Positions 23,891-27,330 are shown, numbered from the stretch's first letter. The stretch is DNA of 64,000 nt from Candidatus Edwardsbacteria bacterium (GCA_018821925.1 JAHJLF010000016.1:19255-83254), one strand, 5' to 3'. Notes: a model not told the origin generated them from the sequence alone. Program-made: numbers and translations.

Positions 23891-25276
23891 CTACTTGTGA
23901 AACTTCTTGATGAACTCCTCCACTTCCGGTACCCCGCCCTGGTATATCAGGTATCCGTTGTACGGCTCGCGCGGAGTGGTCTCCCCGTTGATGGGGGTCA
24001 GCATGATCTCCCTGACCTTCTCCAGATCGCTGGTCTGGCCCAGGGCCCATCCCAGTTTGATATAGGCCACCTCCGGCAGCATGTTCTCGGCCGGCACCAC
24101 CCCCTTGGCCATCAGGTCGCGCCCGGTGTCGTAGACGAACATGTGGACATAGCCCCACAGGGTCTGGACCGTCATGTAGATGGCCACCCCTTTCTTGACC
24201 GCCCGCTCGATGGCCGGGTACAGCGGTTTGTTGACGTGCCCCAGTCCGGTGCCGATGATGATGATCCCCTTGTAGCCGTTGTCCACCATCGAATCTATCA
24301 TGTCCGGCTGCATGTTGGTGTAATAGTAGATCATCCCCACTTTCTCCTCGAAGAAGGGCTTGATGGTGACCTGGCGGTCCTTGCGCCGGGGATTGTAATC
24401 CTGCTTGATGTGGGTCAATCCTTTGCGGGTGATCATGGCCAGCGGGGTGTCGCCGATGGTGCGGAAGGTGGAGCGGTAGGAGGAGTGCATCTTGCGGACC
24501 CGGGTGCCCCGGTGCAGCAGGCCGTATTCGTCCGAAGTGGGGCCGAACATGCAGACCATCACCTCGGCGATGTCGCCGTGGCCGGCCGCGGTGGTGGCGT
24601 GCATCAGATTGAGGGCGGCGTCCGAGGATGGTCGGTCGGATGACCGCTGGGAGCCCACCAGCACGATGGGCACCGGCGGGTTCTGGACCATGAAGGTCAG
24701 GGCGGCCGCGGTGTAGTGCAGGGTGTCGGTGCCGTGGCCGATGACGATGCCGTCGATGCCGTTCTCTATCTCCTTGCCGATGGCCACCGCTAAGGTCTTG
24801 TACTGTTCCGGCCCCATGTTCTCGGAGAACACCGCGAAAAGTTTATCGGTGGTCAGGTTGCAGATGTCGGCCAGCTCCGGCACCGCGCCGTACAGCTCGC
24901 CCGGGGTGAAGGCCGGGATCACCGCGCCGGTGCGATAATCCAGGCGCGAGGCGATGGTGCCGCCGGTGCCCAAAAGCTTGACCTTGGGCAGGCCGGGGGT
25001 AATGGGAAATTCCTTCTCCGGGATCTTGTAATTGGCCTTCTTGTAGCCGGTCTCGGTCATCCCGGTGATGGTCTTGACGTCGATGCCAATATTGTAGCCG
25101 GTGGCGATCTTCAGCACGATGTGCTGATCGTCATCGTTCTCCGACCGCGGCAGCACCGTCCCTTTGAAATCGCCCCGGCTGGTAAGTACTTCGGCCTGGC
25201 CCCACACCCGGACGTTAAATTTCTTCAGGACTTCCAGCCCCGCGCCCTTGTAACCTTGAAAAATATCTTCTGTCAT
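23891..25276 (-). CDS. gatD: Glutamyl-tRNA(Gln) amidotransferase subunit D (archaeal-type GatD; asparaginase-fold glutaminase)
   Basis: About 95-aa N-terminal domain, then the asparaginase threonine motif KLLGTGGTIASRLDYRTGAV. GHGTDTLHYTAAAL, RGTRVRKMHSS and LPEVAYIKL blocks. 461 aa. Adjacent to a GatE homologue. Confidence 0.7.
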   Translation of the reverse strand: MTEDIFQGYKGAGLEVLKKFNVRVWGQAEVLTSRGDFKGTVLPRSENDDDQHIVLKIATGYNIGIDVKTITGMTETGYKKANYKIPEKEFPITPGLPKVKLLGTGGTIASRLDYRTGAVIPAFTPGELYGAVPELADICNLTTDKLFAVFSENMGPEQYKTLAVAIGKEIENGIDGIVIGHGTDTLHYTAAALTFMVQNPPVPIVLVGSQRSSDRPSSDAALNLMHATTAAGHGDIAEVMVCMFGPTSDEYGLLHRGTRVRKMHSSYRSTFRTIGDTPLAMITRKGLTHIKQDYNPRRKDRQVTIKPFFEEKVGMIYYYTNMQPDMIDSMVDNGYKGIIIIGTGLGHVNKPLYPAIERAVKKGVAIYMTVQTLWGYVHMFVYDTGRDLMAKGVVPAENMLPEVAYIKLGWALGQTSDLEKVREIMLTPINGETTPREPYNGYLIYQGGVPEVEEFIKKFHK

Positions 25277-25313
25277 TTATTTGATTATCCGTTATGCATT
25301 TTTAGTTCTTTGA

Positions 25314-25366
25314 ACCTCACCCTTCCCTCTCCTAAAGCATTAGGAGAGGGGTAGGGGAGAGGTCAG
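25314..25366 (+). repeat. CCCTCTCC-AAAGCATT-GGAGAGGG hairpin plus GGGGAGAGGTCA tail (family copy F)
   Basis: 11-bp arms. About 85% identical to the copy at 30200-30250. Lies in the gatE-gatD intergenic spacer. Confidence 0.55.
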
Positions 25367-27330
25367 TCTTCTATCAATGTCCAAAGTTCACCCAGTCCCA
25401 CATTCCCCACCGCCATCTTCCTCAACTGCCCCATCACCCAATGCTTCTCAGCCTCCGGCAGTTTTGAGGTTCTGATGCTTTTGTATTTCTCCTTGAGAAA
25501 CGGGATCTTGGAAACTATCTCGTCCTTGGAGAACCGCTTGAATTCAAGGTTCACCAGCACCGAGTCGAAATCCATCTTGGGATACTGGTACACCACCGGC
25601 AGCATGGTCTTTACGATCTCAGGGTCCAGCTTGTTCTCTACGATATATTTGTAAAGATCATGGATGCGTTCAAATGAAAAGTCCGGGGATCTTTTATAAT
25701 GTCCCTCGACGTATTTCAAATGATGCCCGAACAGCTTCCCGACCTTTTTGGGGGCCTGGCTCAGGCCGGTGACGATCTTCTCTATCACCGGATACAGGTT
25801 GTGGGTGAAAAGATAATGATAGGAATCCTCCGGCACCCCCCAGGTTTTCAGCTGGTTGTATCTTTCGATGACATCAGTGGGCAGATCCTGGCCCAGTTTT
25901 TTGATATGGCTGTCCTCCAGCGGGATGGGCTTGGAGTCGGTGTCGGGATACATCCGGTCGGCCCCGGGCAGCACCCGCTCGAAGATGGTGGTGCCGTCGG
26001 CCAAGGATTTGCGGGTCTCGTTGGGAACCCCGGAGAAGGCCATTATGCATCGTTCCTCGATGGTCTCCCGGGCGGTCTTGATATCATCCTCCGGCCCCCA
26101 AAAGATCAGTTGGGCGTCATCGGTCGAGACTTTGAGCAGGCTTCGCACCTGGTCCCAGTCATTATCAGCCAGCATCGGATCCAGGTCCTCGGAGCAGGTC
26201 ATGTTGGGCCGTTCCAGGCAGGCGATCACTTTGAGCCGGTCGGCGATCTCATTGGCAAAGCATTTTCCGGGCTGGGTAAAGTGTGAAAGTATTCCATTGA
26301 AGCCCGGCAGGTTGACCGCCACCACCTGGCTACCGTTGTTTGCCAGTTCCTTAAAGCGCTTGCTTTCCAGCTTGTTGATAATTGGTTTGAGCGGTTCAGG
26401 TTTTATTTTCCATTCCTTCTGCTGTTTTACTTTGTCCTTGAGCAGGTCGCGGATCTTCAGCAGAGCCCACTGCCGGAAGCACTCGTTGTGGGTCAGTTCT
26501 GGGATCAGCTTGGTGCGCGATACCCCCTTGATCTCCACCCGGGTGCCGCCCTTGCAGGAGACATTGACGTCCTCCCGGCCCGCCCCGATCCCGGTGCGCA
26601 CCATCCCGGTGCTGCGGTTCAAAAAGCGGATGTAGTTGCAGGCCTCCATCACCTCGTCGGGGTTCTTCATGTCGGGATAGGTAACGGTCTCGATCAGCGG
26701 CATGCCCAGCCGGTCGGTGCGGTATACCCGCTCATGGCCGATGTCCGACACCTCCCGGCAGGAATCCTCCTCCAGCGAAAGCTGGATCAGGCGGACCTTC
26801 TTTTTCTTCAGCGGGATCTCGCCCTCCACCCCGATGATGGCGGTGCGCTGGAACCCGGTGGGGATGCTGCCGTCCAGGTACTGCTTGCGGGTGATATGCA
26901 CCTCGCCCACGATGTTCAGCTTGGACAGCAGGGCGATGCGGATGGCGATGTCCAGGGCCTCCCGGTTCAGCGGGAAGGGCGGGGTGTCGTCCACGTCGTA
27001 GGTGCAGGCGGTCCGACTGTTGATGTGATAGACGATGTTCTTCCGGGTCTTGAACTCCATCAGGGCGGTGCCGTCGTACTCGCCCAGTTCGGAAAGGGTG
27101 GGCCGCATATGGCGAATCAGCTCGGCATCATATTCCTCCGGCTTCTGGAATATCCCGGCCGGACAACGACAGAACAGCTTCTGTTTGGTCAGCAGCTGCT
27201 GGTGAACCTCAAGGCCGGACATAAAGCCGATGGCGTCGTAGGTCTGCTGGGTGGCCTGTTTCCTAGGCAGGTACCCGGTCGACGCCAGGGTCTTATCGTA
27301 ATTCAGGGCGGGGTTGATTTTGTCGCTCAT
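25363..27330 (-). CDS. gatE: Glutamyl-tRNA(Gln) amidotransferase subunit E (archaeal-type GatE)
   Basis: N-terminal GatB/E catalytic signature GLEVHQQLLTKQKLFCRCP and LSLEEDSC. 655 aa, which fits GatE (AspRS-like insertion) rather than GatB (about 480 aa). Confidence 0.7.
   Translation of the reverse strand: MSDKINPALNYDKTLASTGYLPRKQATQQTYDAIGFMSGLEVHQQLLTKQKLFCRCPAGIFQKPEEYDAELIRHMRPTLSELGEYDGTALMEFKTRKNIVYHINSRTACTYDVDDTPPFPLNREALDIAIRIALLSKLNIVGEVHITRKQYLDGSIPTGFQRTAIIGVEGEIPLKKKKVRLIQLSLEEDSCREVSDIGHERVYRTDRLGMPLIETVTYPDMKNPDEVMEACNYIRFLNRSTGMVRTGIGAGREDVNVSCKGGTRVEIKGVSRTKLIPELTHNECFRQWALLKIRDLLKDKVKQQKEWKIKPEPLKPIINKLESKRFKELANNGSQVVAVNLPGFNGILSHFTQPGKCFANEIADRLKVIACLERPNMTCSEDLDPMLADNDWDQVRSLLKVSTDDAQLIFWGPEDDIKTARETIEERCIMAFSGVPNETRKSLADGTTIFERVLPGADRMYPDTDSKPIPLEDSHIKKLGQDLPTDVIERYNQLKTWGVPEDSYHYLFTHNLYPVIEKIVTGLSQAPKKVGKLFGHHLKYVEGHYKRSPDFSFERIHDLYKYIVENKLDPEIVKTMLPVVYQYPKMDFDSVLVNLEFKRFSKDEIVSKIPFLKEKYKSIRTSKLPEAEKHWVMGQLRKMAVGNVGLGELWTLIED

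Follow-up and report, generated by a model that had tools for sequence, protein, structure and literature searches.

The fit of GatDE, the tRNA-dependent amidotransferase of archaea, to the archaeal A1-U72 tRNAGln has been invoked as the reason that archaea never took up glutaminyl-tRNA synthetase (GlnRS). Between 2008 and 2022 the enzyme was described in the literature as an archaeal signature, found "exclusively in archaea" or "now only found in archaea" (PMC2330236, PMC2811023, PMC9499178), and no discussion of a bacterial GatDE was found in the literature searched. Described here is a gatE-gatD pair in a stretch of 64,000 nucleotides (nt) from the genome of a Candidatus Edwardsbacteria bacterium (GCA_018821925.1, JAHJLF010000016.1:19255-83254), which is referred to below as the window. 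The pair is confirmed as GatE-GatD, hosted by a bacterium. It is probable that the two genes form a functional GatDE operon that is native to its genome and belongs to an old, widespread bacterial lineage of probable archaeal origin.

Among the described systems, the archaeal GatDE of Methanothermobacter thermautotrophicus (2D6F) and Pyrococcus abyssi (1ZQ1) possesses the same two subunits and domain layout as the window pair, with identical Mg2+ ligands and identical Thr, Thr-Asp and Lys residues. Compared with the window proteins, sequence identity is only about 35-40% in GatE and 46-49% in GatD. The window pair differs from these enzymes in its bacterial host, its tight gatE-gatD operon, the absence of a GXXAXGX motif and an altered loop facing tRNA base pair 1-72. 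Transamidation of mischarged tRNA at the expense of ATP is also the reaction of the bacterial GatCAB (for example, Staphylococcus aureus 3IP4/2DF4). Its GatB subunit is a paralogue of GatE and shares the cradle fold and Mg2+ site, but it possesses no insertion resembling aspartyl-tRNA synthetase (AspRS), reads U1-A72 with a 3-10 turn and carries a Lys-rich tail motif (PMC2811023). GatCAB has a glutaminase unrelated to GatD, the amidase GatA, which GatC assists. The type I L-asparaginases (AnsA; for example, the archaeal 5OT0) have a core homologous to GatD with the same Thr nucleophile motifs, but they lack both the GatD_N domain and a GatE partner.

The window GatE is composed of a cradle domain, an AspRS-like insertion, and a helical and tail domain. 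Pfam GatB_N matches residues 38-476 of this 655-aa protein, that is, 439 residues against a 277-position model, and the match contains an insertion of about 165 residues. Both NCBIfam equivalogs for GatE are passed, NF003107 narrowly (461.1 against a cut-off of 456) and TIGR00134 with 388 against 319.6, and the match reaches position 611 of 630. In contrast, all six GatB models fail, with scores of no more than 123 against cut-offs of at least 315; the best of them gives 123 against 338. The 461-aa partner consists of a GatD N-terminal domain (Pfam GatD_N, 43.4 against a cut-off of 25.7) followed by a core similar to that of the type I asparaginases (Pfam Asparaginase and Asparaginase_C). It scores 501.2 on both GatD equivalogs, TIGR02153 (cut-off 324) and NF003217 (cut-off 310). 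TIGR00519 likewise exceeds its own cut-off. The family-model E-values for the pair, 1e-116 to 1e-150, exclude a chance match. When compared with solved structures by phmmer, GatE gave 285 bits with 2d6f_C and 284 bits with 1zq1_C, against at most 69 for GatB, and was collinear with 2d6f_C over residues 3-538. GatD gave 402 bits with 1zq1_A and 380 bits with 2d6f_A, against at most 143 for the asparaginases. The first-pass annotation of the window had named the two proteins GatE and GatD, and both names are borne out by these scores, by the fold searches and by trees in which the proteins group with GatE and GatD and not with GatB or ordinary asparaginases. NCBI MBU1356079.1, which is identical to the window GatE, is named "GatE [Candidatus Edwardsbacteria bacterium]", and MBU1356080.1, identical to the window GatD, is named "GatD". 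Long plus-strand open reading frames (ORFs) inside both genes (for example, 23897..24643 and 26488..27378) are shadow ORFs of genes rich in G+C at third codon positions (GC3).

The catalytic residues and the predicted fold agree with these assignments. In GatE of M. thermautotrophicus the Mg2+ ligands are His15, Glu157 and Glu184, and mutating them inactivates the enzyme (PMC2330236). Their equivalents in the window are His43, Glu187 and Glu214, and the three positions are invariant across all the labelled bacterial and archaeal GatE sequences compared. The window protein also keeps every one of the 63 positions with at least 95% conservation among 140 GatE sequences. In the window GatD, the motifs TGGTIAS (at 104), HGTDT (at 181) and RKMH (at 261) align with 1zq1_A and 2d6f_A, and the Thr, Thr-Asp and Lys motifs are kept in nearly all of 21 sequences, two of which have one conservative substitution each. 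By residue conservation, both window subunits are predicted to be catalytically intact. For GatE, an AlphaFold2 model computed from an alignment of 79 sequences has a pLDDT of 88.6 and a pTM of 0.86. Its top matches in Foldseek are the GatE chains 1zq1_C and 2d6f_D (E 1e-40, target TM 0.79-0.81), with which it aligns over 511-552 columns, while GatB chains follow at E 1e-21. Weak AspRS matches come solely through the insertion domain, which is consistent with a GatE-specific insertion; the Heimdall homologue gave a Pfam GAD match.

The first-pass annotation had treated GatDE as archaea-specific and its presence here as a cross-domain case. The literature does say the former and the bacterial occurrence is real, but it is neither peculiar to this genome nor rare. 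In a scan of GTDB with one genome per species, at least 573 bacterial species representatives were found to carry a close GatD homologue. Among the best 80 of these loci (L001-L080), 70 are labelled Bacteroidota (Bacteroidales, Lentimicrobiaceae, Prolixibacteraceae, Marinilabiliales), and the other 10 are labelled Cloacimonadota, Zixibacteria, Ignavibacteriales, Acidobacteria or UBP2. Among the carriers are closed Bacteroidales chromosomes (OY782882.1, OY781965.2, OY820914.1) and two cultured strains, Marinifilum flexuosum DSM 21950 and M. fragile JCM 15579; the former has an entire bacterial rRNA operon at a distance of 4.5 kb from gatD. An exhaustive search of the representatives also recovered a divergent tier, with 41-53% identity, in bacterial contexts. 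The neighbours there are MurC/MurD/MraZ/RsmH/Lnt, BamD with type IX secretion system (T9SS) tails, sigma-54 activators, HPr kinase and the phosphotransferase system (PTS), or RND/OEP, and the labels include CSSED10-310 and Coatesbacteria. Bacterial members diverge among themselves to about 37-45% identity. The lineage is composed mostly of Bacteroidota, together with Cloacimonadota, Zixibacteria, TA06, UBP2, Edwardsbacteria, Coatesbacteria and others.

With at least 573 bacterial species representatives, the cultured Marinifilum strains and an Edwardsbacteria host, GatDE does not occur in archaea alone, and because a conserved, catalytically intact gatDE is native to many bacteria, the claim of exclusivity needs correcting. 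The names themselves are already known, since the NCBI and JGI pipelines call such bacterial proteins GatD/GatE; what is new at the level of the field is that the "archaea-only" statement is out of date. The window genes are correctly annotated already and ordinary for their lineage. The wider consequence is that bacterial GatDE, including that of the culturable Marinifilum, opens tRNA recognition in a bacterial background to study. It also raises the questions of whether the enzyme coexists with or replaces GatCAB and GlnRS, and of how an essential component of translation moved between domains.

We infer enzymatic activity and a tRNAGln substrate by homology with the archaeal enzyme. In the proposed mechanism, a glutamyl-tRNA synthetase (GluRS) of the non-discriminating type would misload glutamate onto tRNAGln. 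GatD, an asparaginase relative with a Thr nucleophile, would free ammonia from glutamine or asparagine, and the ammonia would travel through an internal tunnel from GatD to GatE. Using ATP and Mg2+, GatE would phosphorylate the gamma-carboxyl of the misattached glutamate and would then amidate the activated glutamate to produce Gln-tRNAGln. A stronger form of this proposal, which we put forward tentatively and regard as somewhat doubtful, is that GatDE is the working and possibly the only route to Gln-tRNAGln in these bacteria, with GatCAB displaced from its Glu role and GatE re-tuned to a bacterial-type tRNAGln. If true, the supposed co-evolutionary lock between GatDE and the archaeal A1-U72 tRNAGln has been broken, and these bacteria represent a natural experiment on the exchange of a core tRNA-charging pathway between domains.

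Several observations weigh against a pair that simply retains the archaeal function. A scan of the window and all 93 loci for tRNAGln gave no match in the window and none in the bacterial loci. Differences also lie in the parts of GatE that have been tied to the recognition of tRNA. A GXXAXGX motif in the tail has been implicated in telling Glu-tRNAGln from Asp-tRNAAsn, and a positively charged conserved loop adjoins tRNA base pair 1-72 (PMC2811023). Classic archaeal GatE and Heimdall GatE have GXXAXGX, but it is missing from the whole clan that unites the bacterial and Thermoplasmatota-type sequences; the window protein reads P-E-A-E-K-H-W at this position. In the subclade of the window, the basic loop is changed from KV[KR]RG to (K/M)VRTG and the tail from RG[KR]xDGK to xGNxxLxEL. 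In the window protein the loop that faces 1-72 is present with unchanged length and reads G-M-V-R-T-G, versus K-V-K/R-R-G in archaea. Given the altered loop and tail motifs, substrate recognition by the GatE of this clan may differ from that of classic GatE. Finally, in seven of the 80 GatD loci gatE is missing from the whole locus although 3-10 kb of sequence lies upstream of gatD, and at the divergent locus L086 gatE is followed by a PCMT-type methyltransferase with no adjacent gatD. The two genes can therefore be unlinked, or one of them orphaned.

These observations bear on the most serious alternative, namely that bacterial GatDE is an active amidotransferase whose specificity or role has shifted. 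It could have been re-tuned to U1-A72 tRNAGln and have displaced GatCAB from its Glu-tRNA amidotransferase (Glu-AdT) role, it could act on Asp-tRNAAsn, or it could be conditional or redundant beside GlnRS. Besides the lost motif, the changed loop and tail and the unlinked or orphan gatD genes, this alternative draws on the long stem, with 100% support, that leads to the subclade of the window in neighbour-joining (NJ) trees and on the unusual conservation of GatD. At the same loci (L001-L080), GatD is 79-93% identical to the window protein versus 51-79% for GatE. The loop and tail changes, together with this gap in conservation, would allow, but do not prove, a re-tuned recognition of tRNA. 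The alternative nevertheless appears unlikely. All catalytic residues are unchanged, an alternative substrate is without direct evidence, and an archaeal lineage of the same clan (L089) likewise has no GXXAXGX, yet an A1-U72 tRNAGln gene adjoins its gatE. Loss of the motif alone is thus no argument against the classical role. The conservation of GatD across bacterial phyla is in itself a sign of strong purifying selection, and when combined with the highest GC3 in the window (0.87) it suggests high expression or an extra constraint. The C-terminal region of the window GatE is helical and confidently modelled by AlphaFold2, and Pfam GatB_Yqey gave no match in the protein.

L089, which is of the Thermoplasmatota type, held the sole tRNAGln match among the 93 loci and the window. 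Its tRNAGln(CUG), at 11919-11990, has an A1-U72 acceptor pair and lies 10 nt after gatE (10001-11908); glnA (12047-13354) follows the tRNA, and gatD (8460-9848, minus strand) is divergent upstream. Together these genes form a compact glutamine-themed cluster. In the trees, L089 and its relatives share the clan of the window pair, with 99.5% support for GatE and 100% for GatD, and the L089 GatD is 68.5% identical to that of the window. They differ from the window in their archaeal host, their head-to-head genes and the tRNAGln and glnA after gatE, and unlike the window protein their GatE keeps the KVRRG basic loop and the DGK tail. Rfam gave no match in the window. A search there for further genes of the Gln- and Asn-tRNA pathways found SerRS only, with no gatCAB, glnS or gltX, and about 5 kb past each end of the window in the same genome held neither relevant pathway genes nor tRNAGln. 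The loci with gatD and no gatE are L029, L020, L035, L044, L053, L056 and L059, with gatD 79-85% identical to that of the window. L029 (OY781965.2) is a closed Bacteroidales chromosome, in which the gene upstream of gatD is a 391-aa ORF that by eye resembles arginase or formiminoglutamase.

The origin of the bacterial genes was addressed with NJ trees of 135 GatE sequences with bootstrap. Every bacterial sequence falls, together with two other groups, in a clan of 56 taxa with 99.5% bootstrap support. The first group is archaeal, labelled Thermoplasmatota or Thermoplasmatales, and includes L089, which has an NMD3 neighbour. The second (L088), perhaps also archaeal, has an archaeal-looking context with archease, DUF835 and a four-subunit POR. 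The Asgard sequences (Heimdall and Thor) are placed just outside the clan. A tree of GatD gave the same split with 100% support, and with the L089 and L088 proteins the window GatD shares 67-69% identity, versus only 43-49% with those of Heimdall, Thor, Pyrococcus and Methanothermobacter. When the GatE tree was rooted with three GatB cradle-domain segments, 94-95% of 300 bootstraps placed the clan within archaeal GatE, and the root fell between the clan and all other GatE in 3-4%. Counting against this placement, the trees are NJ only and the GatB outgroup spans just 185 columns. Nesting within archaeal diversity under a GatB root favours an old transfer from archaea to bacteria, in line with the cross-domain origin proposed in the first-pass annotation. 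Most likely, to judge from the trees, the linked pair moved from an archaeon into bacteria long ago, and this was followed by vertical descent and probably by further exchange. Branching order within the clan has no firm NJ bootstrap support, and the trees are compatible with bacteria that are monophyletic or not and with one or several transfers. Taxonomic labels are not consistent within the Thermoplasmatota-type GatE group, and two of them probably reflect mistakes in binning or labelling: P0347, called "Bacteroidetes bacterium", is on a 2.5-kb contig, and P0309, called "Thermoplasmata archaeon", is on a contig of 5.16 Mb.

It is considerably less probable that no transfer into bacteria took place and that bacterial GatDE descended vertically from an ancestor with both GatCAB and GatDE, the Thermoplasmatota-type archaea having received their copy from bacteria. 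Published scenarios do put both amidotransferases in the last universal common ancestor (PMC9499178). A midpoint root separates the clan from the remaining archaeal sequences, and the deep divergence among bacterial members would also fit such an age. This history, however, calls for the root that was recovered in so few of the GatB-rooted bootstraps. Sampling of close homologues also shows a patchy distribution, concentrated in few phyla, with a large majority of the best 80 representatives in the Bacteroidota.

Transfer from an archaeon long ago must be distinguished from an artefact of assembly or binning, in which an archaeal fragment was mis-joined, and from a very recent transfer into this genome. 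Both of these are refuted by the synteny, composition, accessions and ClpB comparison, and we assign them almost no weight. The rest of the window is bacterial. As the first-pass annotation had recognized, it encodes an MtgA-type transglycosylase, RbfA, RecN, CsgG and an Omp85 fusion. The fusion is of the patatin-POTRA-Omp85 type, and the window encodes in addition ClpB, two TldD/PmbA-family genes, NAD kinase, an NrnA-like DHH/DHHA1 protein and a bacterial SerRS. The best matches of the window ClpB carry the label Candidatus Edwardsbacteria, at approximately 100% identity, and are followed by TA06 at about 83%. For GatE and for GatD alike, NCBI lists the identical sequence under four accessions with the Edwardsbacteria label, and these lie on four contigs, the longest being 546 kb. 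The window corresponds to contig JAHJSC010000002.1 (545,670 bp) of GCA_018830185.1. The GC and codon usage of gatE-gatD match those of the host housekeeping genes, with GC3 values of 0.78 for GatE and 0.87 for GatD compared with 0.77 for ClpB and 0.80 for SerRS. Two independent metagenome contigs, L081 and L082 (GatE 92% and 87% identical), share the neighbourhood of the window in the order Big_5 protein, NAD kinase, DHH, RbfA, (TMEM43), GatE, GatD and TldD/PmbA twice. On what are apparently the same three long contigs, paired by their equal length, ClpB is 89, 89 and 83% identical and GatE 83, 87 and 84%. GatE thus diverges in step with ClpB, which argues against a chimera or recent import. 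In favour of a recent arrival, the nearest GTDB species representative (L001, UBP2 UBA5202) resembles the window at the DNA level only over gatE-gatD, with 82% over 3,403 nt, and has no flanking genes in common with it. A mobile cassette suggested by L001 was rejected, since the closer relatives L081 and L082 share the flanks. Searches for gatDE found no copy on bacterial plasmids, the sole plasmid match being a haloarchaeal megaplasmid, and no match in phages. The presence of the pair on closed bacterial chromosomes and in cultured isolates is likewise at odds with an artefact. The gatE-gatD pair is native to the Candidatus Edwardsbacteria genome and the contig is not chimeric; the mis-join that the first-pass annotation had raised as a possible objection finds no support. 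Vertical inheritance of gatDE within the Edwardsbacteria lineage since its acquisition is the favoured reading.

Although GatE and GatB are paralogues and GatD has an asparaginase core that passes TIGR00519, the notion of a common GatB that by chance adjoins a common asparaginase of the AnsA type can be dismissed, being refuted by the family models, the structure searches and the GatD_N domain.

The order gatE then gatD, on the same strand, was found in all 69 loci with both genes, with gaps that are mostly below 100 nt; the spacer in the window is 86 nt. Among 87 bacterial loci, no family of linked partner genes occurs beside the pair in more than 15. The first-pass annotation had described this order as the reverse of the usual archaeal gatD-gatE. 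The order is real but not distinctive, since it is shared by the L088 lineage and by Thorarchaeota (L093, where the neighbours are RNase P p30/Rpp14, L15e and PolD), and its occurrence in the latter indicates that it is not a bacterial novelty. In Heimdall (L092) and in the Thermoplasmatota-type lineage (L089), the pair is head-to-head.

The features of the window pair are listed in the table; both reading frames lie where the first-pass annotation had placed them. The hairpin downstream of the TMEM43-family gene, which none of 200 shuffles equalled in stability, would insulate gatE-gatD as its own transcription unit. With terminator-like hairpins on both flanks, the pair is a candidate self-contained bicistronic operon. 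The hairpin in the spacer, which one of 200 shuffles equalled, could be an element for mRNA processing or stability, or the remnant of an insertion site seen in relatives.

Table. Positions in the window of gatE, gatD and the candidate regulatory elements around them.
Feature	Coordinates	Strand	Description
Terminator-like hairpin and U-run after the upstream TMEM43-family gene	27410..27445	minus	14-bp stem; dG -19.1 kcal/mol, z -7.3
Sigma-70-like promoter candidate upstream of gatE	27378..27406	minus	TTGACT-17-TATTCT, 9/12 consensus matches; weak, and the consensus may not be that of the host phylum
gatE	25363..27330	minus	655 aa, ATG start; tRNA-dependent kinase/amidotransferase subunit
Spacer hairpin directly 3' of the gatE stop codon	25315..25362	minus	No U-run; dG -31.4 kcal/mol, z -4.4
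gatD	23891..25276	minus	461 aa, ATG start; glutaminase subunit
Intrinsic-terminator-like hairpin and T-run, 8 nt past the gatD stop codon	23856..23883	minus	12-bp stem then TGTGTTTTT; dG -18.5 kcal/mol, z -5.9

In the close Edwardsbacteria-like relatives L081, L082 and L083, an extra ORF lies between gatE and gatD. In L081 (5575-5964) it encodes a 129-aa PDDEXK_3 protein, and in L082 (11978-12730) and L083 (3958-4710) a protein of 250 aa with no Pfam match.

Elsewhere in the window, three islands of low GC (0.35-0.45 against about 0.57 in their neighbours) and deviant codon usage look recently acquired or mobile. They are located at 8063-10228 (an unknown 323-aa ORF and an HTH-SocA/Panacea antitoxin-like gene), 35004-37189 (an ORF6N-domain gene and an unknown 337-aa ORF) and 45915-47216 (a transglutaminase-like gene). 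The fusion at 149-2383 on the minus strand is a 744-aa protein that joins a patatin-like phospholipase, POTRA and an Omp85 beta-barrel, and the same gene is present in the matching NCBI contig L090. A cluster at 47834-54441 on the minus strand, which is also found in L091, encodes an ArsP-type permease, a DsbD-like protein, thioredoxins, a CDF cation-efflux transporter, a CdhD-like protein, a rhodanese, an SBF-family transporter and an ArsR-type HTH regulator, and has the look of an island for metal/metalloid or redox stress.

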